Of a DNA stretch of 22,559 nt, positions 3,433 through 21,373 are shown in pieces. Below the pieces are notes generated by a model. It ran no database searches, was not told where the DNA came from, and worked only from the letters and a program-made list of their open reading frames with translations. Positions within the stretch are counted from its first letter, which is position 1; every line of letters begins with the position of its first letter. This stretch comes from Nitrososphaerota archaeon (GTDB lineage: Archaea; Thermoproteota; Nitrososphaeria_A; Caldarchaeales; Calditenuaceae): positions 1 through 22,559 of the forward strand of contig JAWBQR010000014.1 in NCBI GenBank assembly GCA_038845265.1, given 5' to 3'. Made by a program: the position numbers and the translations under genes.

Positions 3433-3447
3433 TCTGAGACTTTAATT
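3433..3447 (+). promoter_or_regulatory. TCTSAG promoter motif copy (TCTGAGACTTTAATT), 36 nt before ATG 3469
   Basis: Same position as seven other copies. Confidence 0.6.
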
Positions 3448-3468
3448 CTTTGAAAACATCGGTCAGAC

Positions 3469-3717
3469 ATGCTGGAGTTAAAGCTAAAGAATGGTGAAGC
3501 CATATCGGCACTACTCATAGAGCGTGAAGACGAGGACTACATCTATCTCCAACATGTCACTAAGAAGAATCTTGACGGCTCGGAGACATACTATTACCGC
3601 TACTGGGTTAGGAAAGACGAAGTCATTACGGAGAAAGTAGAGGAAAAAGTCGAGGAATTAAAAGCTGAGGCGCAGGAAACAGTCACTACGGCCGAGAAGC
3701 GACGTAGAAAGAAATGA
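3469..3717 (+). CDS. Small protein, possible Sm/LSm-like fold, with basic C-terminal tail
   Basis: LKLKNGEAISALL...DEDYIYL and YWVRKDEVI resemble Sm1/Sm2; ends KRRRKK; ATGA overlap with the next gene. Confidence 0.5.
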   Translation: MLELKLKNGEAISALLIEREDEDYIYLQHVTKKNLDGSETYYYRYWVRKDEVITEKVEEKVEELKAEAQETVTTAEKRRRKK

Positions 3718-4136
3718 TTTATGCATCGACTTGTGACGACCTCTACAAGCTTACCATCGATTTTTTATCTCGGGCCCGGAGAGAAGTGCTTATATGTTCA
3801 TATCTCTTGACTATGCCGGCCATACTGGCCGAGCTTGTCAGAGCAAAGCAGAGAGGATGCGAGGTAAAGGTATTACTCAGTGGTGACGATAGGAATAAAC
3901 CCGTCAAGCAATTCTTGAGGAGTAATGGCATAGATGCTCGGCTATGGATAAGCCCTAAGGGCATTCTACATGCAAAATACATAATTATTGACTGCAAAAG
4001 GGCCCTAATCGCCTCGACGAATTTCACACATGACGCAATGAATAACAATTATGAAATAGCATACATAGTCACGAATAAGAAGCATGTCCAGAAGCTTAGA
4101 GATAGCTTTCTACAAGAATTCAAGTTCTCAGACTAA
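3714..4136 (+). CDS. Phospholipase D-superfamily protein (single HKD motif, Nuc-like)
   Basis: HAKYIIID (HxKxxxxD), then ASTNFT and NNYE. Confidence 0.88.
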   Translation: MIYASTCDDLYKLTIDFLSRARREVLICSYLLTMPAILAELVRAKQRGCEVKVLLSGDDRNKPVKQFLRSNGIDARLWISPKGILHAKYIIIDCKRALIASTNFTHDAMNNNYEIAYIVTNKKHVQKLRDSFLQEFKFSD

Positions 4137-4141
4137 AAAAC
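4118..4141 (+). repeat. 24-bp direct repeat, copy 1 (ATTCAAGTTCTCAGACTAAAAAAC)
   Basis: Identical to 5974-5997; includes the PLD stop codon. Confidence 0.95.
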
Positions 4142-4316
4142 TACCAAGTTCGTATAAGAATAGTATAATTGTTCTGGCTAATTTTTATACAAAAATTCAT
4201 AAGAGTTTATTTTTAAAAATATACGAAGAGAGTTTTTAGTTGAATTCTCTGCTTTAAGAACAAGTTTGATTGAAGCTCTATATATGGCCTATATAGTACA
4301 TTATTAAATAGAAGAT

Positions 4317-5255
4317 ATGATGCCTTTAGGGCAGGTCAAAAATACATGGTGTAAAATAATATTTGGGGATTCGAGGACACTTAAAGAACTTGATGACAAG
4401 AGTGTCCATCTAATGGTCACGTCACCACCTTATCCAATGATTGAGATTTGGGACTCACAATTTCGGACACTCGATAAAAGGATAGACGAATTATGGATAA
4501 AAATGGAGGAATGCAAAGACGATCAAGAAAAACTGTATTTTGCGGAAAAAATATATGACTTAATGCATGAAAATTTAGCATCAACTTGGAAAGAAGTCTA
4601 TAGAGTCTTAGTTGAAGGCGGGATAGCATGCATAAACATAGGAGATGCTACGAGATCAATAGGAAATATCTTTAAGCTCTTCCCAAACCATGCAAGGACT
4701 ATTGAGCTTTGTGAAAAGATAGGTTTCACTACACTTCCTTACATTTTATGGAAGAAACCAACCACAAAACCAAAGTATAAAGGAAAGGGCGCATTCTTAG
4801 GTTCCGGATTCTTACCGCCAAATGCATATGTAACTTTGGATTGTGAGTATATATTGATATTCAGAAAAGGTAAGCTTAGAGAGTTTGAACCCAATGACCC
4901 TTTAAGATACGCAAGTAAATATACTAAAGAAGAGCGCGACTCATGGTTTACCCAAATATGGGATATACCGGGTGCTAAACAGGAACTTTCAGAAGTTGAA
5001 AGAAGGGCAGCGGCTTTTAATGAAGAAATTCCTACTCGATTGATACGAATGTTCTCAATAATAGGGGATACCGTCCTTGATCCATTCCTCGGTACAGGGA
5101 CAACAATGAAGGTAGCGATGGAATTAAAAAGAAATTGTATTGGGTATGAAATTGATGAGTCACTAAGACCCATAATTGAGAAGAAAATAAATTATGGTCA
5201 AGAAAGGCTTACTCAAGATATAATCAGCATTGAATTCATAAAAAGGGTCGAATGA
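4317..5255 (+). CDS. Type II DNA methyltransferase, beta class, N4-cytosine; M.MjaI/M.MthZI-like (probably CTAG)
   Basis: Motif IV VTSPPY precedes motif I DPFLGTGTT; LFPNH and FLGSGFLPPNAYVT segments recalled from the CTAG m4C family. Confidence 0.88.
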   Translation: MMPLGQVKNTWCKIIFGDSRTLKELDDKSVHLMVTSPPYPMIEIWDSQFRTLDKRIDELWIKMEECKDDQEKLYFAEKIYDLMHENLASTWKEVYRVLVEGGIACINIGDATRSIGNIFKLFPNHARTIELCEKIGFTTLPYILWKKPTTKPKYKGKGAFLGSGFLPPNAYVTLDCEYILIFRKGKLREFEPNDPLRYASKYTKEERDSWFTQIWDIPGAKQELSEVERRAAAFNEEIPTRLIRMFSIIGDTVLDPFLGTGTTMKVAMELKRNCIGYEIDESLRPIIEKKINYGQERLTQDIISIEFIKRVE

Positions 5256-5901
5256 ATCGCCCGGGTGGAAGTTTCTTTAACCTTTCGCATTCCTGCTTTA
5301 TACTCTTAAGAATTTTATCTCTATCAACTATCTCTACTTTCTCTTTTCTTCCTAACGCAATAACTAAATATACTCTTCCACCATATAAATTCTGAAATCT
5401 CTTATGCGGTTCTTCTACTACAAATTTTTTGAATGATTCTACAAGTCTTGACTGACCATATGTAAGTGGTTTAATCTGTATACCAATTAAGTGACCATTT
5501 ACTATGGCATAATAATCGACTCCCAATCGTTCTAATTCGCTAGTCGATGGATGAAATTTCATTCCTGTTTCTTTTTCAAGTATTCCTTTAATAACACTCA
5601 TTTCTCTTTGGAATCCTTCAAATGTTCTTCTAATAACGACATCAATTACATAATTAATACAGTCATCCAGTGTTATACTTTCAATTTCCTGTTTCGCTAC
5701 TGTAGAAATTTTTTCCCATAATTTTTGTCCAAGCTTTATTAAATGTTCTTTAGTCCTCACATTATTGTAATAATAATTTTCCCAATCTTCTAACGTTTTT
5801 GGTTTACATTTTCTGATTTCTTCTGCTAAAGGTCCAACGTTCTTTTGGTAGCCTAATTGAAATCGATTAAAAATAGAGTTCAATATCCATTCTTTAGGCA
5901 T
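5236..5901 (-). CDS. Type II restriction endonuclease, MjaI family
   Basis: PKEWILN...NVGP..EEIRKC.PKTLEDWENYY N-terminus; GVDY...IGIQIKP PD-(D/E)xK-like core; convergent with and overlapping the MTase by 20 bp. Confidence 0.82.
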   Translation of the reverse strand: MPKEWILNSIFNRFQLGYQKNVGPLAEEIRKCKPKTLEDWENYYYNNVRTKEHLIKLGQKLWEKISTVAKQEIESITLDDCINYVIDVVIRRTFEGFQREMSVIKGILEKETGMKFHPSTSELERLGVDYYAIVNGHLIGIQIKPLTYGQSRLVESFKKFVVEEPHKRFQNLYGGRVYLVIALGRKEKVEIVDRDKILKSIKQECERLKKLPPGRFIRPFL

Positions 5902-5973
5902 ACCACATTCTGAGATTCTTTTTATAGACTATTAGATAATCCTTTTCCAGAAATTTTGAGGTATTACGTATTG

Positions 5974-5997
5974 ATTCAAGTTCTCAGACTAAAAAAC
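5974..5997 (+). repeat. 24-bp direct repeat, copy 2; contains the TCTCAG-AC-TAAAAAA promoter motif for the gene at 6018
   Basis: Identical to 4118-4141; TCTCAG at 5982 is 36 nt before ATG 6018. Confidence 0.95.
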
Positions 5998-6017
5998 CTA
6001 GCCACCTCGTCTGAGAC

Positions 6018-6272
6018 ATGAACCAAATAATATATGGCATACTCGGAGGAGCATTATACGGAGTATCAGGATACCTGAAAAGTGGAGAAAAATTCGACTG
6101 GAAAAAATTAGCCAGAACTATTATTCTAGCAGCACTAGTCGGAGTAACTAATGCATTGCTGGGCCTACCAATTACTGAGGATGCAGTGTTAATAGCGCTA
6201 TCGGCCGGAGAAGTAGCAATACTTGAGAATTTTCTTAAAGCCTTAATCAAATTTTCTGAGAAAAATAAATAG
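6018..6272 (+). CDS. Small membrane protein, holin-like
   Basis: 84 aa, 2-3 hydrophobic helices separated by a charged loop (KSGEKFDWKK), charged C-terminus. Confidence 0.55.
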   Translation: MNQIIYGILGGALYGVSGYLKSGEKFDWKKLARTIILAALVGVTNALLGLPITEDAVLIALSAGEVAILENFLKALIKFSEKNK

Positions 6273-6280
6273 TTTTCTCA
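6255..6280 (+). promoter_or_regulatory. TCTSAG motif copy (37 nt before ATG 6292) within an 8-bp inverted repeat TGAGAAAA/TTTTCTCA
   Basis: TCTGAG 6255-6260; repeat arms 6257-6264 and 6273-6280. Confidence 0.55.
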
Positions 6281-6291
6281 AGTTTTGATGC

Positions 6292-7449
6292 ATGAGTGAG
6301 GATAAAGTTAGTTTTCAGGCCATAGTCGAGATAGTGCCCGAAGTAGTGAAAGACAGTGGGGATGAGGAATTCATCGGTATTTTTGAGGGCGTGGCCTCTA
6401 CTCCCCAGATAGACCTCGAGGGAGATGCATTCACTGTTGACGTATTAAGCAAAAATGCTGAAAAACTAAAGAATAAACCTATTCTCTTCGGTCATGGCCG
6501 AGACCCAAAGCTTAGAGATACGCCGGTCGGAAAAATAATCGATGCATGGATAGATGGTGGAGTACTGAAAATTAGGGCAGGCATCTTCAAGCATGCAAAG
6601 GATATTTGGGAAAAGATTAAGGCCGGAGTTTTGCGTGGATTATCGATTGGCGGAGTGGCGAGGAAGGTCAGGCGGGAGACCGTGAATGTAATTGAGGATG
6701 CAGATATAGAGGAGGTCAGCCTAGCGCCACGACCCGTGAATCCATCGGCCCAGATATACAACGTATTCGGTAAAGCCTTCACGGTTGAGGACGGAGTATT
6801 AACGACAATCGCTAAGGTAGATTTTGACTTACCCATAGTAAAGAGGGGGACATGGGATGGGGATGCTGCGAGCCACAGAATATTTGAATGGGCTAAAAAA
6901 GAGGACGGCTCGATAGACAAGAGCAAGGTCTCAAAACTATTCCTAATTGTTCGGGACGACGGCTCGAGACGGGGCGACTACGGCTGGCCCGTAGGAGACA
7001 TAATTGATGGAAGACCCGTATTGGTCTCTAGTGGAATCATCACTGCCATCAAGCATGCAGCCGGGGCCCGAGGTGTTGAGGCCCCTCCAGAAGTAAAACG
7101 TGCACTCGAGAGACTTGCAAAGAGACTAGTAGATGAGGGAATCCTGCCAAAAGACTATGAAGTCCCGTGGAAACGAGAAGAGAAATCAACGGTGATTGAG
7201 GAATTATTCATGAAGGTCTGGTCTCTCGAAGATACAGTCTCATTGATAATTGAGAAGAATAAAAAACTCGAGGATATAGTCTCTTCGATAATCGAGAAGA
7301 GTGAAAGGCTCGTAAAATCGATGGATAAGACGCCTAAGGCGATGGTAGCGTCTGAGGAGGTCGTGAAGAAGGAGCCTAGGAATTATGAGTCAGATGTGTT
7401 GAGGAAGTTCTACGAGGAGCTGTATGGTCTCAGACTAAAAAAAGAGTAG
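6292..7449 (+). CDS. HK97-family prohead protease with extra central domain and C-terminal coiled-coil (scaffold-like)
   Basis: FEGVAST..IDLEGD, ILFGH, PVGK, GLSIGG, EVSL...PVNP motifs; directly upstream of the MCP. Confidence 0.9.
   Translation: MSEDKVSFQAIVEIVPEVVKDSGDEEFIGIFEGVASTPQIDLEGDAFTVDVLSKNAEKLKNKPILFGHGRDPKLRDTPVGKIIDAWIDGGVLKIRAGIFKHAKDIWEKIKAGVLRGLSIGGVARKVRRETVNVIEDADIEEVSLAPRPVNPSAQIYNVFGKAFTVEDGVLTTIAKVDFDLPIVKRGTWDGDAASHRIFEWAKKEDGSIDKSKVSKLFLIVRDDGSRRGDYGWPVGDIIDGRPVLVSSGIITAIKHAAGARGVEAPPEVKRALERLAKRLVDEGILPKDYEVPWKREEKSTVIEELFMKVWSLEDTVSLIIEKNKKLEDIVSSIIEKSERLVKSMDKTPKAMVASEEVVKKEPRNYESDVLRKFYEELYGLRLKKE
7428..7443 (+). promoter_or_regulatory. TCTSAG motif copy (TCTCAGACTAAAAAAA), 37 nt before MCP ATG 7465
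   Basis: 15-nt identity with the 5982 copy; AGGTGAT SD follows. Confidence 0.65.
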
Positions 7450-7464
7450 GTAGGTGATTAAGTC

Positions 7465-8436
7465 ATGAGTCAGGAAATAGACTTTAGGAAATCGGCAGAG
7501 GCGTATTTAAGGTTCTACAAGGCGCTTACGAGTGGAGATACTGGCTTTCCAGAAATTCCGCCAGAAATAGCTAGAGACATCATTGAGTATGTCTGGAAGA
7601 AATGCGTTGTGAGGCGGCTTTTCCCATGGATAATGATGGACAGTGACACCGTGAAGTATTACGTCGAGTCGGGTACTATATCAGTCTATTCACCCTCAAC
7701 TGAAGGAGCACAGGTAACGGAGTCAAAGATAACCTTTGGCACACCGGTTGAACTAATAGCGAAGGAAATTAGGGCGTGGTCATCAATTACTGACGTAGCG
7801 TCTGAGGAGGCGGCTATCGACGTTATAGCGAGGACAGTCAAGCATTTCGGCAATAAGTTTGCAGAATGTGAAGAGAGAAACGCACTCACGGGTGCCGGGG
7901 ATGCCTCATCCGCAAATGATTTATTTAAGGGGCTTTCAAAACTTTCCTCTGCAGATGGCGCACAAGTAACCAATAAGTCCAAAAATAGCCTCGGCTTAGA
8001 TGATATTAATAATGCTCTAGCGTATTTCGAGGACGCTGGGTATGATACTGGTGGTTTAGTCATGTTGATCAATCCATACGCATTGATGCACTTGAGGAAG
8101 GCACTGATAGATGCGGGCCTGGACACATTTGCGTCTCAAGTTACTGAGGAAGGAGAATTCCCGAGGCTATACGGTATTAGAATAGTGCCTACTGGATGGC
8201 TTGTCAGGAGACAGTATAATCCGACCGCTTCTCCACCCGACACAACACTTGTATCCGATGTAGTCATAACGAATCCATCAGTCTCAGCAGTCGGCGGAGA
8301 CAGGAGAAAAATAACTATCGAGCGTGACAGGGACATTACGAAGGGAGTCACGATAGTGGCTGCCAGTGAGAGGTTTGCATGGAGAGTTCTTAAGCCAGAT
8401 GCAGTATACGTCTTCCAGAACGTGCTGAGCCAGTGA
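7465..8436 (+). CDS. Major capsid protein, HK97 fold
   Basis: IPPEIARDII, EGAQVTESKITF, E..ALTG.G, FKGL, RLYGIRIV, ERFAWRVLKPDAV; 323 aa; position after the protease. Confidence 0.92.
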   Translation: MSQEIDFRKSAEAYLRFYKALTSGDTGFPEIPPEIARDIIEYVWKKCVVRRLFPWIMMDSDTVKYYVESGTISVYSPSTEGAQVTESKITFGTPVELIAKEIRAWSSITDVASEEAAIDVIARTVKHFGNKFAECEERNALTGAGDASSANDLFKGLSKLSSADGAQVTNKSKNSLGLDDINNALAYFEDAGYDTGGLVMLINPYALMHLRKALIDAGLDTFASQVTEEGEFPRLYGIRIVPTGWLVRRQYNPTASPPDTTLVSDVVITNPSVSAVGGDRRKITIERDRDITKGVTIVAASERFAWRVLKPDAVYVFQNVLSQ

Positions 8437-9070
8437 TAATCTGCTGCATAAGCGTCTTCAATGAGGCGGACAACATAGCTAGAGCCATAGAGAGCATAGT
8501 TGATTATGTCGACAAAATAATAGTCCTTGACGGAGCTTATGCCAGATTCATGGCTTTAAATAACTTAAATTTTTTCTCTCAAATGATGATACTGAAAAAA
8601 TAGTTCTCGACTTAGTCTCAAATTATCCAAATATATTTTTTATTAAGCCTGTCAGGCCATGGCTGAGTGAAGTAGAGAAAAGAACATATTTTTTCAGGTT
8701 TGGGAACTCGAATCGAGACGTATTCTTCATGCTTGATGGTGATGAAGAATGCATGGGAGACGTGGCCTCAGGGATTGAAAAGGTTAGGAAAAGTCATGAT
8801 GACGTATTCTCGGTCAGAATACATGATTTAGAGAGAAATACATGGGCCTGGAGAATACGCTTCTACAGGTGGCAGTCGAACATGCGGTATGAGGGAAACC
8901 ACTGGACAGTTAAGGGTAATAGATACGAGGTATATTATGTTAGTGCAGATCCCCCAAAATATCCACGAATAAATGATTTCTATATAATTAATCATGAAAA
9001 GTCTCCTGAACGCAAAAAAATGAATGAGAAATACTATGCCTATATGGCTCTCCGAGACTGGCGTGAATAA
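8433..9070 (+). pseudogene. GT2-family glycosyltransferase split by a -1 frameshift at about 8567-8576 (about 212 aa if joined)
   Basis: GTG 8433 frame gives IICCISVFNEADNIARAIESIVDYVDKIIVLDG; the -1 frame continues SNDDTEKIV...EVEKR...FFMLDGDEE (DxD) into track ORF 8729-9070. Confidence 0.8.
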
Positions 9071-9110
9071 ATTCTCAGAAAGACAAGGAAGTCGTGAAGA
9101 CCATTAATGA

Positions 9111-9548
9111 ATGCCGAACCCAAAGTCAAAATATGAGTATAGGTTCAAGAAGGCTTGGAGCTGGCCCGGCTCAGTGGAGAAATTTATTAATAATTTTTTA
9201 GTCTCTCCTAGCTTACACGTCTTTTGCGGGGAGTCAAGACTAGGGGACGTACGTGTAGATTTATTTACTGATGCTGATGTCCGGGCCGATGGTTTTCGTC
9301 TGCCTTTCCGAGATAATGTATTTATGAGTATCGTCAGCGACCCGCCATGGAATATGCCGTATCATCTCAGGCCGAGGCTCGCAAAGGAATTTTTCCGTGT
9401 CCTGAGGCCTGGTGGAAAACTAATACTTAACGCTCCGTGGTGTTTTGGTCTTTCCTCTTTGCTGCTCGAAGAGGTCTATTATGCTATGGCGCCTGCTTGG
9501 AGGAATTGTCCCCTCATAATGATATATAGGAAGTTCTCAGCATCTTAA
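9111..9548 (+). CDS. Small SAM-dependent methyltransferase with DPPW amino-MTase motif
   Basis: LHVFCG (motif I-like), LPFRDNVF, VSDPPW, RVLRPGG; TCTCAG at 9073 is 38 nt upstream. Confidence 0.8.
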   Translation: MPNPKSKYEYRFKKAWSWPGSVEKFINNFLVSPSLHVFCGESRLGDVRVDLFTDADVRADGFRLPFRDNVFMSIVSDPPWNMPYHLRPRLAKEFFRVLRPGGKLILNAPWCFGLSSLLLEEVYYAMAPAWRNCPLIMIYRKFSAS

Positions 9549-9550
9549 AC
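9535..9550 (+). promoter_or_regulatory. TCTSAG motif copy (TCTCAGCATCTTAAAC), 38 nt before ATG 9573
   Basis: AAGTTCTCAG shared with the 24-bp repeat. Confidence 0.55.
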
Positions 9551-9572
9551 ACGTATTTTATTTTTTTGAGAC

Positions 9573-10388
9573 ATGGTATATGCATCGGTAAGAGATGTGA
9601 GAATATTTAACGGATGGTTTCCAGTCGAGGTGAGGGGCGATATACTTACTAGGCTCTCAGAAAATATGTTTAGAACATCTAAGAAGCCAATAGTTGATTA
9701 TGACTGGGATGATGATGTTCTCGATGACGTGAAGGTCTACGTAGATGGTGTATTAGCAGATATAAACAGTATCGATGAGGAGAGAGGCGTCATAACATTA
9801 GCCACGGCTCCGCCAAGCGGGGCCCTCCTAACTGCTGACTACTATCATCACCCAGTCGGAGATTCTGAAATTAAGCTTGCATTATCCTACGCAGAGGAGG
9901 AAATAAAAACCACTACGGGAATTAAATATGAGGCGCATGAAAAGACTGAGGAGGTAATACTTCATTATGGCTCGGTCTTTGAGCTTGCCGAGCCAATTAT
10001 CACCATTAACTCTATCGATATTGATGGCTATACACTTACTGCTGATGAATATGAAATAGTTGATGCGGAGGCAGGGATAGTCAGGCTGAAAAACATATCT
10101 GCAGGTCTGGTCATGCCTCCGTGGTATATTGCGAAGAGTATTAGGTTGAGGGTTCAATACATTGCTGGTTATCAGGCTATTCCCAGCATCGTGAAGCATG
10201 CATCAATACTCATAGCGACGTATCAATTATTACTTAGGCTTCAGAGACAAGTAACATTTACAGAGGATTACTCGGGAATAACAATGGCGTTCAAGACGCC
10301 TGAAGATTTGACGAATAGACTACAATTTTTGCGGGCCGAGGTTGCAAGAGTAAAGGAGCTACTGCCTCGGAGGGTGGTTAAGGCTTGA
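9573..10388 (+). CDS. Head-tail adaptor (gp6/gp15-like) with inserted beta-rich domains
   Basis: N-terminal YASVRDVR, C-terminal YIAGYQAIPSIVKHA; inserts such as VYVDGV...GVITLATAPPSGALLTADY. Confidence 0.72.
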   Translation: MVYASVRDVRIFNGWFPVEVRGDILTRLSENMFRTSKKPIVDYDWDDDVLDDVKVYVDGVLADINSIDEERGVITLATAPPSGALLTADYYHHPVGDSEIKLALSYAEEEIKTTTGIKYEAHEKTEEVILHYGSVFELAEPIITINSIDIDGYTLTADEYEIVDAEAGIVRLKNISAGLVMPPWYIAKSIRLRVQYIAGYQAIPSIVKHASILIATYQLLLRLQRQVTFTEDYSGITMAFKTPEDLTNRLQFLRAEVARVKELLPRRVVKA

Positions 10389-10765
10389 GGCAAATCACTG
10401 ATATAGTTGATGCTCTAGTGAGGAGACTTCGCGAGGCTACTGGTCTTCGGGTCAAGACTGCTTGGATTGCTGTGGGAGACGTAGCGCCACTAATAACGTT
10501 GCTAATGCATGACTCGGAGATTAGGCCGATAGATATGTCTGGGCGACTAATATATGACCTTCGTTTCCAGATAGATATTTGGCACCAGTCGGCCAAGGCT
10601 CGGGACGAGGTTTTTGACAGGATTCTAGCATACTTCGACCAGAACAAATCCGCACTACACAATGATTATGGATGGTTTGATGTCAGGTTCACGGGCCTGA
10701 CCGACTTGGAGGAGGAGGGAGTATTCAGGAAGATAGTTATGCTCCGCCTAAGGGTGGTTGGATAA
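10385..10765 (+). CDS. Tail terminator / tail completion protein
   Basis: 126 aa, PLITL and FQIDIW motifs, TTGA overlap with the adaptor gene. Confidence 0.68.
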   Translation: MRQITDIVDALVRRLREATGLRVKTAWIAVGDVAPLITLLMHDSEIRPIDMSGRLIYDLRFQIDIWHQSAKARDEVFDRILAYFDQNKSALHNDYGWFDVRFTGLTDLEEEGVFRKIVMLRLRVVG

Positions 10766-11032: not shown

Positions 11033-11921
11033 TGCACTCAATATTACTAAGTTCTTGGACGTTCTCAGCAGTGAGACGGGTGATGGGTGCCGAATAGTAT
11101 TCATCGATACAGGAGTAGCCAATGACTTAGAAGTGCAGGACATAATCAACCTCACAGATGAGTCGATAGTAGACGTTACACAGCACGGCTCAATCATTCA
11201 ATACATAATCAGCTACATATTGCCGGAGGCCGAGATATATGCAGTAAAGATCCCCGACCCAGTCCCCGACCATATATTGATAAGCGCATTGAATGAAGCC
11301 ATGAAGTGGCGGCCCCACGCAATTAATCTAAGCTTCACGAGTGAATTTCCCTCTGATGGAACTGACCCATGCAGTATATATGTCGATTACGTATCGAGAA
11401 GCAGTGTAGTCTGTATAAGTGCTGGTAATGGCGGGCCCAGATTCATGAGTATTGGCGCGCCAGCAACGGCCCGAGAGGCACTGACGGTAGGGGCTACCGA
11501 TACACGTGGCCGCCTATGGATTAAGAGTAGCCGGGGCCCGACGCTTGACGGCAGATGGAAGCCAAACATCGTCGCGCCCACGAACTATGTAATACCTGAA
11601 ATTGACGAGGATGAGAGCTGGCCGGGAACGAGCTTCTCGGCCCCCATAGCAACTGCACTAAGCGCAATACTAATGCGTGAAATAGGTGATAGCTATGTGG
11701 TGCGGAGAATTATTGAGATTACTGCCACATCCATCCCCATCATCTTCTCTGGAAAAATAATGTTGAAGGGTATTAGGCAGTCAAGCCTAATAAAGCGAAT
11801 ATTTGAGGCGTGGCCGAGACTACTGGACTCACGAAACTTGATAGGGATGGGGCTGCTGAATGCTGCCGAGGCAGTGAAGACTGCTAAACATCTCAGATTA
11901 ATAGCATCAAAAATATCTTAG
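11001..11921 (+). CDS. S8 subtilisin-family serine protease
   Basis: FIDTG (Asp), QHGS (His), SAGNGG (oxyanion Asn), SSRGPT.DGR.KPNIVAP, GTSFSAP (Ser). Confidence 0.92.
   Translation: MSHMVRGNIDDALNITKFLDVLSSETGDGCRIVFIDTGVANDLEVQDIINLTDESIVDVTQHGSIIQYIISYILPEAEIYAVKIPDPVPDHILISALNEAMKWRPHAINLSFTSEFPSDGTDPCSIYVDYVSRSSVVCISAGNGGPRFMSIGAPATAREALTVGATDTRGRLWIKSSRGPTLDGRWKPNIVAPTNYVIPEIDEDESWPGTSFSAPIATALSAILMREIGDSYVVRRIIEITATSIPIIFSGKIMLKGIRQSSLIKRIFEAWPRLLDSRNLIGMGLLNAAEAVKTAKHLRLIASKIS
11891..11904 (+). promoter_or_regulatory. TCTSAG motif copy (TCTCAGATTAATAG), 37 nt before tail tube ATG 11928
   Basis: Positional conservation. Confidence 0.6.
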
Positions 11922-11927: not shown

Positions 11928-12818
11928 ATGAGCTTCAAGAGACTCGTATCGTATGGTGAAGAGACGACATACGGCCAGCCCCCGTCAGATTTGGGTAGGT
12001 GGATAGGCCTTGTCCAGACGTTTAATGGCGGGGTTGAGCATGCTGGCGAGGAGGTGGCGGCCCTCGACGCAGATAGGCTGAAAAGACCAGTAATATACGG
12101 CATTGACGTCTCGCCATCGATGGAGTTCTTTGTTCAGAATGCGATATTTTTGAAGTATGCATTCGGGAGCGTAACTAATAGTGGTACAGCGCCGCCGTAT
12201 ACACATACATTAACGATAAGCCCAGACTACTTATTGCCCAGCATTACATTGGTAGAGCATAGGATAGGCTCGCCGATGCATGGTTATAAATATACTGGCT
12301 GCAGAGTCGAGAGTCTAGAGCTTTCGTGGGAAGAGGACGGCTTCCTAACCGCATCAGTAGAGCTGATCGGTAAAAGTGTAGAAAAAATAACTACACTACC
12401 AAGCGTCACGCCGAGCAACGAAGAACCATTCAAGGCTAGCCAGAAGACCGTTACGATAAATGGAACTGAGAATCTGTATGTCGTGTCTGGAAGCGTATCG
12501 ATAACCAATAATCACGTAAAGTATCCCCGAAGCGGAGACTTCATAGCCGGTATAGTCGCAGATAGGGTGGACATCGAGGCGAGCCTAGATATTTTCTACA
12601 TCGATTCGAGCATATATGAATTAATGCTGAACAAGACAAAGTTTGACGTCACAATAAAGTTTACACGCTCGACTGATGACTACATCGAGATAACTCTTGA
12701 TGATTGCTATGTAAGTGTTGATTCTGAGCTTCCGGCTGAGGGAGAACTGATGCAGACACTCAGTCTGAGGCCCTCAAACATATCAATAGTTGCGAAAGAC
12801 AACATAGCGACTTATTAA
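11928..12818 (+). CDS. Tail tube (major tail) protein
   Basis: YGEETTYG N-terminus, YTHTLT, LPSITL, YTGCRVESLELS; upstream of chaperone and tape measure. Confidence 0.85.
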   Translation: MSFKRLVSYGEETTYGQPPSDLGRWIGLVQTFNGGVEHAGEEVAALDADRLKRPVIYGIDVSPSMEFFVQNAIFLKYAFGSVTNSGTAPPYTHTLTISPDYLLPSITLVEHRIGSPMHGYKYTGCRVESLELSWEEDGFLTASVELIGKSVEKITTLPSVTPSNEEPFKASQKTVTINGTENLYVVSGSVSITNNHVKYPRSGDFIAGIVADRVDIEASLDIFYIDSSIYELMLNKTKFDVTIKFTRSTDDYIEITLDDCYVSVDSELPAEGELMQTLSLRPSNISIVAKDNIATY

Positions 12819-16614: not shown

Positions 16615-16634
16615 CAAGAACATTAATGTAAAAA

Positions 16635-17690
16635 TTAGTCAAGACCCAAAAACTTTAAAAATCTTTGGTATAATCTTGATCCCTGTATAATTCTTAATAG
16701 AGGACAATTATCATCGAGTATTAAATATGTAATTACCGCCCCAGTCATTATAGTGAGATATGAGAAGAAGAATGAGCCCATTGGTAAAGAATAGAAATCT
16801 TGACCATTAGGCAACGTGATAACAAGAGTACGAATGAACAAAATAGATATGCTGCCAAAAATGGTACCAATAGTAAAGGCCACCCCGGATTGTAACAAAA
16901 AACCCATAACGCTTTCCTCCTTTTTAATGCAATCGTTATGCTTTTGAAAAATAAAACCCAACGATAGGAAAAACACACATAATAAAATGGAAAAAATAGA
17001 CATGACATGCCTAATAGGTAAAAGATATCGAGTGTAGTTAAGAGCAAAAATCATTAAAACTATTACGATAGAAAAAGCCGAAATGTAATTAATTGCGTAT
17101 CTTGAGAGTTTTTTGATATAAGAAGTAATTTTGCAACGAGTCCCTATGTAAACCACGTAGACTGAAATTAAACCATAAAATACTGCGAGCATACCAATAA
17201 TCCTGTTATTTATTGAAACTACTTGGTGTACCTGAAGGCCAAAACATAAACAAACAATTTCTGTAAAATTATATTCGTATTTTGATAAGCAATGCGAAAA
17301 ATTGGATATTTGTTCGAGGAAGGCGTAATTTTGGTTTCGATATGTATCATTTAGCCTTAACGAGTCAATAAACATTGACAACCTAACATTAAAACAACTC
17401 TGAGTGGCAATAAAAATTCCTATAGATAAAAGCGAAATGACAGCTACCATAAAGGCAATTTTAAGAGGTCTGGGTCGATGTTTAGAATCATAACTAAAAT
17501 AAAACCATATTATGAGGATTACAAAAAATAGACTCTGCAGGTAATAATAACCGACAAACTTATCGAGAAAGTTCAACAGTCTAACTTCAGGGAATAATGC
17601 TATTAATAATATTATTACAAAAGGAAGGAATGATATGATGATGGGACCCCAAAACCATTTTACTATATTTCTTTTCGGGAATCCGGACAA
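16635..17690 (-). CDS. Multi-pass membrane protein (AT-rich moron)
   Basis: About 8 hydrophobic segments; antisense to the tail operon; low GC. Confidence 0.75.
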   Translation of the reverse strand: MSGFPKRNIVKWFWGPIIISFLPFVIILLIALFPEVRLLNFLDKFVGYYYLQSLFFVILIIWFYFSYDSKHRPRPLKIAFMVAVISLLSIGIFIATQSCFNVRLSMFIDSLRLNDTYRNQNYAFLEQISNFSHCLSKYEYNFTEIVCLCFGLQVHQVVSINNRIIGMLAVFYGLISVYVVYIGTRCKITSYIKKLSRYAINYISAFSIVIVLMIFALNYTRYLLPIRHVMSIFSILLCVFFLSLGFIFQKHNDCIKKEESVMGFLLQSGVAFTIGTIFGSISILFIRTLVITLPNGQDFYSLPMGSFFFSYLTIMTGAVITYLILDDNCPLLRIIQGSRLYQRFLKFLGLD

Positions 17691-17807
17691 TGCAGATTCT
17701 CAGTAATAATTTTTGCCTTAAATAAAAAGGTTTAGCTCATGAAAAGCAGTTGCATAGACAGTTATTTCTTATCTTTTTAAGCATAGAAATGTAATTAAAG
17801 AAAAACA

Positions 17808-19730
17808 ATGGGCCTAATACTTGAAAAATATATAGATGGTGAGTGGATAGATAAGACCTCTAAATGCATTTCTCTTAGCCTAGGGATATCAAGCAGGCAA
17901 TTAGAGTCCCTCGAGGCCGAGCTTATAGAAAACATCGATGTAGGGACAAGAGTCAGACTGAAAAGAGGGGAAACAATTATCTTCGAAGGAGTAGTATATG
18001 AATCGGACAAGAGTCAGAGGGCTGGAGATGTCCCAAGATGCAGATTAACGGCCTACACAGACCTAATACTCTATGACCGACACGTGGTCTTCAAGGCTTA
18101 CGGCACTGGAACGAAGGCGGGGGCAATAATCAAGGATCTCGCGGGCCTGGAGACTGATGTAGATGTATCAAACGTTGATGAAGATAACACGCCTGCATTA
18201 AACTCGCCTTGGACTATTGAGAATGAGGTGGTTCTCAAGATAATGCAGTCAATCGCTAAGGGGACGAACTACTGGTTAAGAATGCGGCCCGGCAAGAAGC
18301 TATACTTCAAGCCGAAGACCACCTCAACACCAGTAGAGACCATAGACTCCTCCAAAATAATCTCGGCTGAGTATTGTGAAGATAAGTGGAGGCTGAAGAA
18401 TAGGGTGATTTACGTCGGCGCTAATGGGCAGGTTTTAGCCGATGTCTCGGAGGGCGCGGGAGATCTCCCCGTCGTCGTTCATGATCCATTTCTAACGGAT
18501 GTAAGCGAGGCACAAAGGCGCGCAAATATCAGATTGGCGTTGAACAAGGAATATGGAAAACAATTACGCGTTGAAATGCATCAAAATAATTTCGAGAATA
18601 TGAACGTTGATTTAGGCGACACCATCCGCGTCAATTTACCATCATTGGGGCTTGAAAACGTTGAGATGTTTTTGCTTGAGATAGAATATGACCCATCGAG
18701 GCTAATATACTCGCTTACTCTCGGCGGAAAATTAGAATTATTCGAGGACTTTCTGAATGAGGCTATTGGTGGAGACGTGGCGGCACGATTCGGGCAAAAG
18801 GTTAGTGTTGTAGGTGAAGTCTCAACAATCAAATCAACATTGTATTTTGTTAGAAAGATTCAGAGCGTAACGGCTTATAGATTTGTTACTTATCTGAATA
18901 GGCCGCCTTTAACTATTCATGAGGCGGAAAACATAACTATTAGGCGAGACACGGGAGAGGCAGAACTGGCCGCTGGATTTACAAGCGGATACTTAGTCAT
19001 CAGTTTTCTACCACCGTCTCAGACTTTTAGGAGATGGGGATATGTTGAGTGGGTAAGCTTTATGAATGATGGTTCAATCACTGTCCAGCTACTGGATACT
19101 CAGAATAATATATTAGCATCTAAGACCGATTGGGGCTCGGGCCCCTCATTCCAGAAAAGATTATATCTGAGGCGATGGCCCGCACGCTCACAAGAAATGA
19201 CTAAGCATCCGGCTAAGCTTAACTGGGGCTCAACGACTACCGGCGAGGTCAATATATCGTATGCGGGCCTGATTTCAGGAACATGTATAAGGCTCGAGCC
19301 AATTACTCAAGGCACTTTAGGCGAGATATTTTATCCAAAAACAAAAAATTTAGGACTCGATATTAGTTGGGCCCGATACATGAGTATATTTCTGCTCGCA
19401 TTTTCTCCAAACACGACCGTGAAGATAAGGCTACACACTGATGATAATAATTACTATGAGGCGAGCATAGTAATTAGCGAGGCGGAAAAATGGAGAGAAT
19501 ACGTCTTAAACATAAATACCTTCACAAATGTAGGGAGTCCAGACTTGTCAAATATAAACTGGATAAGCATATTGACCAATTACACGACATTAATTGATAG
19601 TGACTATGTTTTTCATCAATATCCATTAGCGGAGCTTAGAATAAGATTTAATCTGAGCAGGCCCGACGCCAACGCTATCTCTCCAAAGGTTAAGCGAGTA
19701 GTAGTCACCTATGAGGAGGTGATGGCATGA
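17808..19730 (+). CDS. Tail tip/hub protein with C-terminal carbohydrate-binding-like domain
   Basis: Hub-like N-half (FEGVV, LYFKP, LKNRVIYVG, DLGDTIRV); C-terminal LDISWARY...IRL...WREY.LNINTF..VGSPDLSNINWI resembles a CBM/galactose-binding fold. Confidence 0.7.
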   Translation: MGLILEKYIDGEWIDKTSKCISLSLGISSRQLESLEAELIENIDVGTRVRLKRGETIIFEGVVYESDKSQRAGDVPRCRLTAYTDLILYDRHVVFKAYGTGTKAGAIIKDLAGLETDVDVSNVDEDNTPALNSPWTIENEVVLKIMQSIAKGTNYWLRMRPGKKLYFKPKTTSTPVETIDSSKIISAEYCEDKWRLKNRVIYVGANGQVLADVSEGAGDLPVVVHDPFLTDVSEAQRRANIRLALNKEYGKQLRVEMHQNNFENMNVDLGDTIRVNLPSLGLENVEMFLLEIEYDPSRLIYSLTLGGKLELFEDFLNEAIGGDVAARFGQKVSVVGEVSTIKSTLYFVRKIQSVTAYRFVTYLNRPPLTIHEAENITIRRDTGEAELAAGFTSGYLVISFLPPSQTFRRWGYVEWVSFMNDGSITVQLLDTQNNILASKTDWGSGPSFQKRLYLRRWPARSQEMTKHPAKLNWGSTTTGEVNISYAGLISGTCIRLEPITQGTLGEIFYPKTKNLGLDISWARYMSIFLLAFSPNTTVKIRLHTDDNNYYEASIVISEAEKWREYVLNINTFTNVGSPDLSNINWISILTNYTTLIDSDYVFHQYPLAELRIRFNLSRPDANAISPKVKRVVVTYEEVMA

Positions 19731-20851
19731 CTGAATACCTAATACTGAATCAGGCCCGAGCATTTCCCCTAGTTTGGGAATACCAAAAACAGGTAAACTA
19801 TGACCCAATAAACTTTACAGGAACATTAACTCAAGAAAGGTCACAGTGGCTATTGTCACATGGTGGTAGTGCAGGTAGTAGCTATACAGTGGGTAGCGGC
19901 GGGCTTAAATGGGTTGATTGGTGTTTTAAACTATATTCATCCATAACAACGAACTACGAAATTCTAGGAACATTTCTTACAAAGGTGGTAATATATTGGA
20001 CTGACTCAACTGGAAGCACGGGGACCTACACGGTAGAGCTATGGAATGCTGACTCTGATACTTTAGACCGTACGACTAAAATATGTGATTTGGGGTCATT
20101 CTCAGTCAGCAGCAGTGGCTCAGGCTCATGGACATGGCAAGTAACAAATCCATTCGATGGTAAACCCCTCACGCTTGGAAATGCCTATGGCATCAGGCTC
20201 TATAGTAGTTATGAGATATATCTAAAAACCATAACGGTTAAGGAATATTCAAGCTATACCTCGACCCCATCAGGGAAATTCACTGCGACAAAGACTCATA
20301 GAAGTGATGGAGGATCAAATACTAATCGTTCATGGCAGGGATGGCAGGTGGAGGTAATCACTGTTCTGCGTTATCCAAAATCGTCAAGAGAAATATTCAG
20401 GACGGATGAAGCAAATAAATTATATATTTATAAATCACAATCATTGCCGTCTGGAGTATCCCTTATACATGATTTAGTAAATGATGCATACTATAATTTG
20501 CCTACGACATCGCCCGGGACAAATATACCATTTCCACAGAACGAGAAAATAGAATATACTTTTGATTTCTACACCACGTCCGATATCAATAATGGAAACG
20601 TGAATACAACTCTATATCCCAGCCTGATCTATGAAGTTAATCCCGTCACGTTAGATATGTTTTATGCCTCAGAGGCTTATCTTCAAAAGATAGAATATCT
20701 TCAAACCAGCTCAAAGGCAAGACTGAACGACAGTCCACTGCAGGAGTTTTCAGGAGACTCAGGCGCCATCACCTTCGACCCTCCAATCATCGTCTGGAAA
20801 ATCCAAAACATAAGCGGAAAAATACGGGCCACAATGATGGTGCTTGAATAA
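19727..20851 (+). CDS. Putative tail adhesin / receptor-binding protein
   Basis: Ser/Thr/Gly/Tyr/Trp-rich beta-type composition; GAGGTGA SD; ATGA overlap with the hub gene. Confidence 0.55.
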   Translation: MTEYLILNQARAFPLVWEYQKQVNYDPINFTGTLTQERSQWLLSHGGSAGSSYTVGSGGLKWVDWCFKLYSSITTNYEILGTFLTKVVIYWTDSTGSTGTYTVELWNADSDTLDRTTKICDLGSFSVSSSGSGSWTWQVTNPFDGKPLTLGNAYGIRLYSSYEIYLKTITVKEYSSYTSTPSGKFTATKTHRSDGGSNTNRSWQGWQVEVITVLRYPKSSREIFRTDEANKLYIYKSQSLPSGVSLIHDLVNDAYYNLPTTSPGTNIPFPQNEKIEYTFDFYTTSDINNGNVNTTLYPSLIYEVNPVTLDMFYASEAYLQKIEYLQTSSKARLNDSPLQEFSGDSGAITFDPPIIVWKIQNISGKIRATMMVLE

Positions 20852-21101
20852 AATGATGATTAAGTTCATTGATCCGGAGACTGGCTTACCACTTGAGCAG
20901 GCCCAAAAACTCAAGAAAATCATATTAGACACAACACAAAAAATATTAGAAGAAAATAAATTATTGCAAGAAAAAATTATTATTTTAGAAAATGAGAATA
21001 ATGAGTTAAGGAATAAAATTCAAACCCTTGAGGCACAACTAAGCCAACTACAAGCCGATATTCAAGTAATCAAGAAGGAGGCAAGTGTCTCAGGGTATTA
21101 A
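20844..21101 (+). CDS. Coiled-coil protein
   Basis: Heptad pattern LEEN..LQEK..LENEN.ELRNKIQTLEAQLSQL. Confidence 0.6.
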   Translation: MNKMMIKFIDPETGLPLEQAQKLKKIILDTTQKILEENKLLQEKIIILENENNELRNKIQTLEAQLSQLQADIQVIKKEASVSGY

Positions 21102-21102
21102 G
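21088..21102 (+). promoter_or_regulatory. TCTSAG motif copy (TCTCAGGGTATTAAG), 37 nt before ATG 21125
   Basis: Positional conservation; supports ATG 21125 over TTG 21110. Confidence 0.6.
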
Positions 21103-21124
21103 CATATCTTTGCGAGTTTTGGGT

Positions 21125-21373
21125 ATGAGTTGGCTTCTTCGTGGTAGGCCTGAGAGGCGGGTGGAGCAGGGCGGAGAGGAAGTAGTGAGTGGAGTGGAGT
21201 TTGTTGTTAGGCGTGTCGGGGAGGACTTAGTGGTTCAGGGCCGGGCCCGGAGTCTGAGCGATGTTGATAGATTGAGACGTATAGCTGACGAGGTGTTTAA
21301 AGAAATATTTGAGGGGCATGAAGGTCAGCCAGCTGGCCCAGCTAGTCCTCGACGCTTCGCAAAGCAACATTGA
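21125..21373 (+). CDS. Hypothetical protein upstream of the large terminase (small-terminase position)
   Basis: ATG 21125 with promoter motif; overlaps terL by 56 bp; no recognised HTH. Confidence 0.5.
   Translation: MSWLLRGRPERRVEQGGEEVVSGVEFVVRRVGEDLVVQGRARSLSDVDRLRRIADEVFKEIFEGHEGQPAGPASPRRFAKQH

Follow-up and report, generated by a model that had tools for sequence, protein, structure and literature searches.

The hexamer TCTSAG stands 36-38 nt upstream of eight start codons in a head-tailed viral element from the genome of a member of Caldarchaeales (Aigarchaeota); the motif recurs at this distance in the relatives of the element and is all but absent from host promoters. We interpret TCTSAG as the commonest form of an element-specific core promoter, in which a hexamer at the BRE position and a TATA-like box would direct leaderless transcripts; we assign this interpretation a probability of about 0.72.

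The element is carried by the window, which is an entire contig of 22,559 nt; the host genome is 93% complete. Neither the window nor the relatives had a recognisable early or replication module. The first-pass annotation had proposed a late promoter; the label "late" has no basis, because the elements show morphogenesis genes only and offer no early module as a contrast. The element is a mosaic, as its capsid protein is nearest to those of Ca. Geocrenenecus elements (66-67%), whereas its tube protein is nearest to that of a Ca. Pelearchaeum element (65%) and reaches only 36-37% against Geocrenenecus.

Motif sites in the window

All eight hexamers listed in the first-pass annotation, and the ATGs that follow them, were found where they had been placed, with offsets of 36, 36, 37, 37, 38, 38, 37 and 37 nt. 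These sites, together with other copies of the motif, are as follows.

3433-3448, plus strand: TCTGAG followed by the A/T box TTTAATTC (3441-3448), 36 nt upstream of ATG 3469 of an 82-aa ORF
3424-3429: tandem second copy beside the 3433 hexamer
3441-3455, minus strand: degenerate TTTCAA (3455-3450) with an A/T box read as GAATTAAA, 37 nt upstream of portal ATG 3418
4118-4141, plus strand: orphan copy at the end of a PLD-like gene, left member of the 24-nt direct repeat ATTCAAGTTCTCAGACTAAAAAAC; no ATG 36-38 nt downstream
5974-5997, plus strand: right member of the 24-nt repeat, with TCTCAG at 5982, 36 nt upstream of ATG 6018
6010-6015: additional TCTGAG, 8 nt upstream of ATG 6018
6255-6272, plus strand: TCTGAG with AAAAATAAATAG, 37 nt upstream of ATG 6292 (prohead protease/scaffold), within the end of ORF 6018-6272
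7428-7444, plus strand: TCTCAG with ACTAAAAAAAG, 37 nt upstream of ATG 7465 (HK97-type major capsid protein), within the last codons of the protease gene
9073-9090, plus strand: TCTCAG with a weak A-rich box, 38 nt upstream of ATG 9111 (145-aa methyltransferase-like ORF)
9535-9552, plus strand: TCTCAG with CATCTTAAAC, 38 nt upstream of ATG 9573 (271-aa ORF, a conserved gene lying between those for capsid and tail)
11891-11907, plus strand: TCTCAG with ATTAATAG, 37 nt upstream of ATG 11928 (tail tube protein), within the end of an S8 peptidase gene
17698-17725, plus strand: orphan TCTCAG with an A/T-rich stretch, adjoining an inserted membrane-protein gene, 110 nt upstream of ATG 17808
21088-21104, plus strand: TCTCAG with GGTATTAAG, 37 nt upstream of ATG 21125 (82-aa ORF directly before the large terminase)

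The portal start at 3418 was assigned from homologues that begin MSW, and homologues with the same beginning place the start of the ORF before the terminase at ATG 21125, not at TTG 21110. At the portal junction of the window, a single A/T box lies between two outward-facing hexamers (3433 on the plus strand and 3455-3450 on the minus strand). The gene at ATG 6018 encodes an 84-aa hydrophobic protein and is the first head-side gene. A low-GC restriction-modification (R-M) insert is flanked by the perfect 24-nt direct repeat (4118-4141 and 5974-5997), inside which the motif lies. The predicted structure of the 82-aa product of the ORF at 3469 had a pLDDT of 63, too poor for a structure search. 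Orphan copies, with no ORF at the right distance, occur at 4126, 17698, 5909 and 9655. The 7-nt palindrome TCTSAGA is present at six of the eight positioned copies and occurs 14 times in the window.

Counted on both strands, TCTSAG occurs 56 times in the window against an expectation of 29.1 ± 6.2, and 0 of 100 shuffles reached 56. Thirty copies lie on the plus strand, and eight of these stand 36-38 nt ahead of one of the 23 plus-strand starts in a list of 29 genes. In a look-elsewhere control, every hexamer with at most one two-fold degenerate position was scored in 3-nt offset windows from -6 to -70; TCTSAG at 36-38 nt ranked first among all hexamers and offsets (8/29 genes). When 200 sets of 29 ATG pseudo-starts were drawn at random from the same window, the best combination of motif and offset reached 3 in 137 sets, 4 in 61 sets and 5 in two sets. 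The A/T tract that had been noted downstream of most copies is borne out by an A/T fraction at +6..+17 of 0.76 for the eight sites vs. 0.50 for the other 22 plus-strand copies (one-sided Mann-Whitney p=0.0085). This tract had been described as weakest at 9073; the value there is indeed the lowest (0.67), but 9535 and 21088 are equally at 0.67. Five of the eight copies (6255, 7428, 9535, 11891 and 21088) fall within the 3' end of the ORF before them, and the R-M genes and the membrane gene lack the motif at the 36-38 nt offset, both as first reported.

Element specificity, conservation and site architecture

The motif is specific to the element, as its designation as virus-specific had implied, and is not the host BRE: TCTSAG was found at 36-38 nt in 1 of 1248 host genes. 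The composite pattern occurs seven times on the 22.6-kb contig vs. five times in the remaining 1.35 Mb, and a matrix trained only on relatives gave 0.66 hits/kb on the contig vs. 0.17 hits/kb elsewhere. Site 21088 scores 15.9 bits with this matrix; the strongest match in the genome, at 23.7 bits on contig C28, has no recognisable element gene adjoining it. Across 400 kb of the complete chromosome of a relative, 50 non-coding copies of TCTSAG were observed vs. 51 expected, with no offset peak among 392 genes. Host promoters have TTTAWA boxes after A-rich positions (A at 0.52 and 0.51 at -4 and -3), and C reaches at most 0.16 from -8 to -1, where the element has TCTSAG. The hexamer therefore occupies the BRE position with a sequence unlike the purine/A-rich preference of host TFB; the element box is likewise a poor match to the host TATA (TTTAWA) and at 9073 is barely A/T-rich.

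Two other assignments were considered and rejected. Matches to TCTSAGANWNWWWAR in five relatives exceeded a reversed-pattern control (for example, 9 vs. 1 in G012), which could indicate a host regulon, but most of the matches outside elements were not ~37 nt before an ORF start. As for a target of restriction-modification, R-M genes are found only in the window, whereas the motif is family-wide, and the motif is enriched and positioned, not avoided.

A search of 76 genomes of the order gave 17 strong capsid matches, from which 14 related loci were obtained. Motif and spacing are kept in related elements of other genera, before orthologous genes. In these relatives, which are kin, so that site counts are non-independent events, an exact TCTSAG stands 33-44 nt before the in-frame ATG of the portal gene in 8/10, of the major capsid protein (MCP) gene in 9/14 and of the first head-side gene in 6/7; it also precedes w9573 (5/13), tube (4/12), tape measure (2/10) and protease (2/12). 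Using the relaxed pattern TYTSAN with a TATA-like box, and with the window included, the motif was found before MCP in 14/15, protease in 11/13, the adaptor-like gene w9573 in 11/14 and tail tube in 11/13. The background rate at random positions was 0.7% for the relaxed pattern and 1.1% for the exact one. Seven other families lacked the motif altogether (w10385, 0/8; w10766, 0/7; w11001, 0/11; w13358, 0/7; w19727, 0/4; w20844, 0/9; w17808, 0/10). Separate copies precede the portal, first head-side, protease, MCP, adaptor-like and tail tube genes, joined in some elements by the tape measure gene and by the small gene ahead of the terminase. Hexamer and distance persist across hosts of 36 to 59% GC, at a capsid identity of just 40-67%.

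Single-protein capsid searches of IMG/VR and of genome contigs returned no matches, and an alignment query was needed to recover relatives. An IMG/VR viral contig has TTTCAG or TCTCAG with a box at -37 of the protease, MCP, tube and 142-aa genes. Three genomes with weak capsid matches (24-26% identity, G044-G046) gave short loci in which no ORF of ≥80 aa had the motif before it, and on contig C7 a distantly related second head-tail element has the motif before 0/17 ORFs.

TCTSAG is only the commonest form of the motif; the consensus is wider than first proposed and reads TYTCA(G/A/C) with a box such as ATAAG, TTAAG or TATAA. As a module, TYTCA(G/A/C) is usually followed by A; 1-3 bases further on comes the TATA-like box, with a consensus of about WNAWAAG. 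Over 39 unique sites, the offsets to the ATG are 37 nt (14 sites), 38 (8), 40 (5), 36 (4), 39 (4), 41 (3) and 34 (1). The logo has A at +6 in 28/39 sites, then an A/T box spanning +8..+14 (about -29..-23 relative to the ATG), and no conservation upstream of the hexamer; this geometry, a hexamer directly upstream of a TATA-like box, agrees with the BRE position originally suggested and is as expected for a BRE in a leaderless archaeal promoter. Twelve of the 39 sites fall between genes; the others overlap the upstream ORF, 15 of them in frame 0, 3 in frame 1 and 9 in frame 2. Because the motif occurs in all three frames of upstream genes, the constraint is on the DNA, and coding constraint does not explain the conservation. 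The palindrome TCTSAGA is present at 28/39 sites; long dyads occur only at divergent junctions.

Promoter reading, candidate factors and rival explanations

What the sequences show is the position of the motif, its specificity, its conservation and a constraint on the DNA; promoter activity, the start site and the factor are our inference. TBP would bind the box (about -29..-23 relative to the ATG), the hexamer would sit where TFB contacts DNA, and RNA polymerase would initiate at the ATG or within a few bases of it, giving leaderless mRNAs. Since the hexamer is unlike the A-rich BRE of the host, a dedicated factor may be needed, or the promoters may be intrinsically weak and regulated.

An alternative TFB had been suggested as the reader of the motif; this found no support, as a search of the host genome, which is 93% complete, with PF00382 gave a single TFB ORF (C3:25762-26313, two repeats), although a paralogue could lie on unassembled DNA. 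Among the 27 window ORFs there was no Pfam match to TFB (TFIIB) or TBP. The statement that no regulator is recognisable was correct for the window. Contig C25, on which the truncated portal gene continues, encodes a candidate reader of 233 aa, in which two hydrophobic stretches at the N-terminus are combined with a CxxC/HTH-like segment and a helical tail. Such a candidate HTH-like protein is encoded in 13/15 related loci, mostly beside the portal gene; some relatives also have a 182-aa ribbon-helix-helix-like protein. Its HTH matches are below Pfam cut-offs, the C25 copy has no PHROG or Pfam match, a profile search of the PDB gave coiled-coil noise only (best E=0.05), and an Atlas search gave unnamed viral clusters only. 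The CxxC/HTH segment is absent from three of 13 aligned members (L040-L042), which still carry motif variants.

Because the TCTSAGA core is palindromic, it could serve both directions. Several relatives have a central core between two mirrored TATA-like boxes, from which the ATGs of the portal gene and of the first head-side gene lie 37 nt away in opposite directions; this mirror-symmetric portal/head junction is present in five relatives (L036, L037, L039 and L042, and less regularly L038), and it is best read as a compact predicted two-way promoter. Leaderless genes would be expected to be depleted in Shine-Dalgarno sequences, and these were found before 4/40 motif genes vs. 25/117 others, a weak trend (Fisher p=0.16). 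Non-motif window genes at 10385, 10766 and 19727 show a ribosome-binding stretch of GGAGG/GGTG type; the capsid gene has the Shine-Dalgarno-like GGTAGGTGA in addition to the motif. No RNA run was listed as containing the sequence. Three hot-spring metatranscriptome runs (3-5% of each read) gave 0, 0 and 3 reads, and a further run, labelled metatranscriptomic and probably consisting of DNA, gave 13 contig pieces.

In its broadest and most speculative form, which we consider rather unlikely, the promoter reading would extend to the whole Caldarchaeales head-tailed family, which had already been suspected of being domesticated and gene-transfer-agent-like. The family would have a private promoter code at -37, made up of TYTCAG and a weak TATA box, that is read by one dedicated factor, perhaps the portal-adjacent CxxC/HTH-like protein or a host regulator; all particle genes would fire together from leaderless promoters, and the palindromic core with its mirrored boxes would be a minimal symmetric two-way promoter.

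The palindromic core also bears on a different role, which we regard as a real if tentative possibility: the hexamer may serve chiefly as the operator of a dimeric regulator, a repressor or an activator of element or host origin, that acts at the BRE position and switches the particle genes jointly, with TFB reading little or none of the hexamer. The frequency of TCTSAGA among the sites and in the window, the tandem or second copies near starts (3424/3433, 6010), the long dyad symmetry at the portal/head junction, the departure of the hexamer from the host BRE with just one host TFB found, and the portal-adjacent protein with its helical tail are all consistent with such an operator; in the excerpted text of PMC11065993, repressors are taken to bind inverted repeats that cover the BRE of other archaeal viruses. 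The palindrome, however, is limited to 7 nt and is not extended (-1 is T in 22/39 sites, and its partner +7 is A in only 7/39), the common variants TTCTCAA and TTCTCAC are non-palindromic, and the HTH-like segment is missing from three elements that keep motif variants. An operator role refines the promoter reading and does not contradict it.

A role chiefly as a module-boundary or recombination sequence, at which modules and inserted genes are swapped and whose place before starts is a by-product, appears improbable. Such a role would need neither a fixed 36-41 nt to the ATG nor an A/T box at a fixed place, and the motif would not be expected to persist ahead of the same orthologues when their proteins are 40-67% identical; the observations that point to it are the motif-bearing direct repeat around the R-M insert, the copy at 17698 abutting the inserted membrane gene, and the mosaic affinities of capsid and tube. 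Recombination and promoter roles can coexist. We give very little credence to action in RNA, as a processing site or translational signal ~37 nt before selected ORFs of long polycistronic transcripts. Several copies do lie within the preceding ORF and would be transcribed if read through, and the capsid gene combines the motif with its Shine-Dalgarno-like stretch; however, divergent junctions have the same core facing mirrored A/T boxes in both orientations, which fits recognition of DNA and not of RNA, the word is too short for a hairpin, no Rfam family matched in the window, and the A/T box stands at TATA distance from the ATG.

Relation to known systems and significance

As a predicted core promoter, the module resembles the canonical archaeal BRE/TATA promoter in having a TATA-like box about 23-29 nt before the presumed start and a 6-7 nt element directly upstream; in the canonical form the box is centred about 26-27 nt ahead of the transcription start, and the primary 5' end falls about 25 nt beyond the box. 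It differs in that the hexamer, T-C/T-T-C/G-A-G, is pyrimidine-rich with a palindromic core and the box is a weak TATA, whereas host genes of the same genome show the canonical form (TTTAWA after A-rich positions). A trinucleotide GTC just after the TATA box was reportedly described for SIRV1/SIRV2 promoters by Kessler et al. in 2004; this is likewise a virus-specific core promoter addition common to many genes, but it lies downstream of the TATA box and belongs to a rudivirus of Sulfolobales.

In the excerpted text of PMC11065993, TFB is described as preferring G at -6 and A at -3, and the early genes of Sulfolobales viruses share regulatory sequences around the core promoter (BRE and TATA box). 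As in our element, that consensus is common to many genes of one virus and is conserved across relatives despite coding divergence; unlike ours, it is a strong BRE/TATA of host type, which also precedes highly expressed genes of the host, and marks early anti-defence genes, according to the same excerpts. The motif described here is unlike that of the host and marks morphogenesis genes of head-tailed elements of Caldarchaeales. A known host regulon with a hexamer near a weak BRE is also comparable: in the part of its description available, a conserved hexamer defines co-regulated promoters, and an unidentified regulator was proposed to recruit TFB. That hexamer is not a palindrome; it sits upstream of the BRE, at -39 to -44 relative to mapped start sites, and was reporter-tested, whereas the element hexamer abuts the box and has a role predicted from sequence.

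Within the same host order, CalSub-Pro is a head-tail provirus of Ca. Caldiarchaeum subterraneum with an HK97-type capsid, an S78 protease before the capsid gene, a portal and tail genes (Krupovic et al. 2019, PMC6563490, in the part of the text available). Neither replication genes nor att sites could be identified in that provirus, a GTA-like domesticated element is raised as a possibility, and the paper has 0 occurrences of the word "promoter" (PMC6563490). Our relatives include MAGs titled Ca. Caldarchaeum subterraneum; the likeness to CalSub-Pro is drawn by description. We found no published description of the motif in the literature on Aigarchaeota/Caldarchaeales proviruses and promoters, archaeal virus promoters and Thaumarchaeota start sites.

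Gene regulation in Caldarchaeales has, to our knowledge, hardly been described, and the same holds for their head-tailed elements, which may be viruses or domesticated particle producers. The motif, which is short, sharply placed and conserved across the order, predicts transcription units and start sites, could be used as bait for the regulator, and would help to recognise related elements, with the genes they regulate together, in metagenomic data. In the mirror-symmetric junction, nature offers a small system for studying what determines the direction of an archaeal promoter.

Gene content of the viral element and its TCTSAG copies

The window comprises the entire contig C14 of a 1.37-Mb genome (34 contigs, 93% complete). 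Based on Pfam and PHROG scans, its open reading frames (ORFs), which we called with our own simple rules, belong to a head-tailed viral element.

Features of the element (source of assignment in brackets)
True start ATG 3418, minus strand: portal, N-terminal fragment (Pfam/PHROG)
3714-4136: PLD-like nuclease (Pfam/PHROG)
4317-5255: N4/N6 methylase of a low-GC restriction-modification insert (Pfam/PHROG)
5236-5901, minus strand: MjaI-like endonuclease of the same insert (Pfam/PHROG)
Start 6018: 84-aa hydrophobic protein
Start 6292: prohead protease/scaffold (Pfam/PHROG)
Start 7465: HK97-type capsid protein (Pfam/PHROG)
Start 11001: S8 peptidase (Pfam/PHROG)
Start 11928: tail tube (Pfam/PHROG)
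Start 13771: tape measure (Pfam/PHROG)
16635-17690, minus strand: inserted membrane protein
Between the inserted membrane protein and the large terminase: tail proteins
21309 onward, continuing past the right contig end: large terminase (Pfam/PHROG)

The first-pass annotation had placed TCTSAG 36-38 nt upstream of eight start codons, and all eight hexamers and all eight ATGs lie where it located them. The window contains 56 copies against 29.1 ± 6.2 expected, an approximately twofold excess that none of 100 shuffles reached. We scanned all hexamers with at most one two-fold degenerate position in each 3-nt offset window across 29 gene starts; TCTSAG at 36-38 ranked first, with 8 genes, whereas 200 control sets of random-ATG pseudo-starts gave maxima of 3 (137 sets), 4 (61 sets), and 5 (2 sets). 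The choice of start 21125 over 21110 is backed by homologues, and dropping it leaves seven genes, still above every control maximum. The A/T tract described after the motif is also borne out, with an A/T fraction of 0.76 at the 8 sites and 0.50 at the other 22 plus-strand copies (p=0.0085), and five of the eight copies lie within the 3' end of the preceding ORF, as had been noted for several.

The capsid protein (7465-8436) is nearest to those of Ca. Geocrenenecus elements (66-67% identity), whereas the tail tube (11928-12818) is nearest to that of a Ca. Pelearchaeum element (65%) and has just 36-37% identity to Geocrenenecus sequences; on these identities the element is a mosaic, its capsid and tail tube having different nearest relatives. 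A perfect 24-nt direct repeat that includes the promoter motif (4118-4141 and 5974-5997) brackets the restriction-modification insert. Just inside the left repeat (4161-4186) is a 26-nt inverted copy, 92% complementary, of a stretch within ORF 6018-6272 (6103-6128); together these look like a scar of the insert's acquisition. Nucleotides 1-38 of the window are identical to positions 214-251 of C29, internal to this 3.2-kb contig of the same genome; since an ORF close to the related element of genome G050 has a homologue on C29, this contig may adjoin the left end of the window.

Recurrence of the motif in related elements

A six-frame search identified capsid relatives in 20 of the 76 genomes of the order, the window's own genome included (searching at class scope returned the same 76). 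Outside the window there were 17 strong matches (39-67% identity) and 3 weak ones (24-26%). Records in which capsid relatives lie bear the names Ca. Geocrenenecus, Ca. Calditenuaceae, Ca. Pelearchaeum, Ca. Caldarchaeum (including subterraneum), and Archaeon HR01. For 14 of the 17 strong matches we retrieved as much as 20 kb of surrounding sequence, leaving out a short locus in G034 identical to that of G031, a pair of fragmentary contigs from G002, and the weak matches. These relatives keep the gene order. The portal gene is on one strand, and on the opposite strand lie, in order, genes for a small hydrophobic protein, protease, capsid, w9573 (271 aa, adaptor-like; w denotes a window gene by its start, with its orthologues), w10385, w10766, S8 peptidase (w11001), tube, w12829, w13358, tape measure, tail proteins, a small ORF, and terminase.

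Motif occurrence upstream of orthologous genes. Exact: TCTSAG 33-44 nt upstream of an in-frame ATG, in relatives. Relaxed: TYTSAN at offset 33-44 with a TATA-like pentamer no more than 11 nt away, counted in the relatives and the window with a single start per gene picked by homology.
Capsid: exact 9/14; relaxed 14/15
First head-side gene: exact 6/7; relaxed 5/8
w9573: exact 5/13; relaxed 11/14
Tube: exact 4/12; relaxed 11/13
Tape measure: exact 2/10
Protease: exact 2/12; relaxed 11/13
Portal: exact 8/10
Pre-terminase ORF: relaxed 3/5

Other orthologous promoters bear variants such as TTCTCAAccCTATAA, TTCTCACcgAATTAAG, and TTTTCAAcgCTTTAG. The motif and its spacing, which were to be sought in related proviruses, thus recur before orthologous genes (e.g., 14 of 15 capsid genes in the relaxed test), with counts that overstate independence because the relatives share descent. 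The relaxed motif is found at 0.7% of random positions, and it was absent before w10385 (0/8), w10766 (0/7), w11001 (0/11), w13358 (0/7), w17808 (0/10), w19727 (0/4), and w20844 (0/9). When words were enumerated de novo in each of the three closest relatives, YTCTCA or TTCTMA at 38-39 independently came out at or near the top: it ranked first in loci L029 (5/18 genes) and L030 (6/22), and in L031 it fell just short of another word (4/24 genes vs 5). In an IMG/VR viral contig with 67% capsid identity, TTTCAG or TCTCAG plus the box lies exactly 37 nt before four genes (protease, capsid, tube, and a 142-aa gene).

Among 39 non-identical sites, 12 are intergenic, and 15, 3, and 9 are distributed across the three frames of the upstream ORF. 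The pre-capsid hexamer is translated as G-L-R in the window, as F-S-D-stop in the Geocrenenecus elements, and as S-Q in other relatives, and host GC content spans 36 to 59%. As judged from these sequences, the constraint on the motif acts on DNA. The sequence logo carries no information 5' of the hexamer; downstream, A occupies +6 in 28/39 sites, followed by an A/T box at +8 to +14 whose last base is G or A. Offsets to the ATG peak at 37 (14 sites), then 38 (8 sites).

The promoter word TTCTCAGA(C/T)TAA supplies the final codons together with the stop codon (-F-S-D-stop) of upstream genes that are unrelated, namely that for the PLD-like nuclease in the window (4126-4136) and, in Ca. Geocrenenecus elements (L029 3237, L030 4922, L031 4955), that for the protease; the cassette can therefore also terminate the preceding ORF. 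Most related elements (L029-L041) also encode, at varying positions, a ~485-aa fusion of an ABC-type ATPase and a GNAT acetyltransferase (e.g., L040 612-2069, L030 5968-7431), which is missing from the window's element.

A mirrored portal/head junction occurs in five relatives (L036, L037, L039, L042, and, less regularly, L038), with the layout CAT(portal) - ~20 nt - TTTCTTAATT - C - TCTCAGA - G - AGATAAG or AATTAAG - ~22 nt - ATG. One palindromic core thus sits between mirrored A/T boxes, each ATG being 36-37 nt from the core. The 50-nt window junction is arranged differently, with a single A/T box (3441-3448) between two hexamers: TCTGAG on the left, serving ATG 3469, and TTGAAA on the right, which reads TTTCAA on the minus strand 37 nt from portal ATG 3418. 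Such junctions would fire both ways.

Host promoters and a second head-tail element

A host gene set of 1285 ORFs of at least 100 aa, obtained with a simple longest-ORF rule, carries GGTGA-type ribosome-binding signals upstream, and the host TATA hexamers TTTATA, TTTAAA, and TATATA start mostly 30-40 nt ahead of the ATG. The sequence upstream of the host TATA box is A-rich (A 0.52 at -4, 0.51 at -3), with C at ≤0.16 at every position from -8 to -1. The alternative that TCTSAG is the ordinary host BRE is contradicted by this A-rich element and by the occurrence of TCTSAG at 36-38 in 1 of 1248 host genes. We also searched for a composite of TCTSA[GAC], a TATA-like pentamer no more than a few bases away, and, at 34-42, the first ATG of an ORF that is 60 aa or longer; C14 has seven such sites vs five in the other 1.35 Mb of the genome.

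One relative element is embedded in a chromosome of 1.68 Mb that is complete. Across 400 kb of its host DNA, TCTSAG was not enriched in non-coding DNA (50 observed vs 51 expected) and had no offset peak among 392 genes, and ordinary TATA hexamers were 4- to 7-fold enriched there. Within 100-500 kb of the chromosome of a relative, G012 (L064-L083), GGGATC/GATCCC and TGATCC/CTGATC were 5.5- to 6.6-fold enriched in non-coding DNA; they may be a regulatory word or part of a repeat family.

The window's own genome contains, on contig C7 at ~57.9-70.8 kb, another head-tail element that is distantly related to the first (tail protein 37% and terminase 27% identity to those of the window). The motif preceded none of its 17 ORFs, which argues against one code common to all such elements in the host. 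An ABC-ATPase/GNAT fusion gene adjoins the C7 terminase, and the final 130 nt of C7 correspond, at 98% aa identity, to an internal portion of the terminase in the window.

Candidate reader protein and known systems

An alternative TFB, one of the two kinds of reader proposed earlier, finds no support in the host, where a PF00382 search shows one TFB ORF; the accompanying statement that the window has no recognisable regulator holds, as Pfam/PHROG scans of its ORFs returned no TFB, TBP, or clear DNA-binding domain. The window portal gene (2909-3418, minus strand) ends after ~160 of ~380 residues, and beyond it are a DndB-like gene and a zinc-ribbon ORF. The missing C-terminal half is on contig C25 of the same bin (L106 1-641), which overlaps the portal gene by 66 nt with 95% identity; either the sample contains two variants of the element or the left 2.9 kb of C14 is mis-joined.

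After the portal C-terminal part, C25 encodes a 233-aa protein (L106 1555-2253) that, based on its sequence, combines an N-terminal pair of hydrophobic stretches with a CxxC...HTH-like...HxxxH segment and a long helical tail. Homologues of 200-300 aa occur in 13 of 15 related loci, mostly adjoining the portal gene (L031-L042, L084), and HTH matches to the IMG/VR homologue fall below threshold (HTH_20, E=3e-5). The 233-aa protein could be the motif reader or a small terminase; its link to the motif is tentative because three Ca. Caldarchaeum-type relatives that lack the CxxC/HTH-like segment retain motif variants. These three and two other relatives encode a 182-aa ORF that is ribbon-helix-helix-like by eye and has no Pfam hits.

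In Krupovic et al. 2019 (PMC6563490), CalSub-Pro, a head-tail provirus of Ca. Caldiarchaeum subterraneum, is described as possibly GTA-like and as having no recognisable replication genes or att sites; the word "promoter" is absent from that paper, and likewise from two recent surveys of archaeal proviruses. Sulfolobales viruses are known to have element-specific promoter consensus sequences (PMC11065993), and a regulon-defining hexamer near a weak BRE is known in Sulfolobus (PMC5817253). The motif described here is unlike either of them in its sequence, position, and palindromy, and also in the class of genes it precedes and in host lineage. The motif is well supported as a conserved cis-element, and we infer that it acts through a promoter mechanism.
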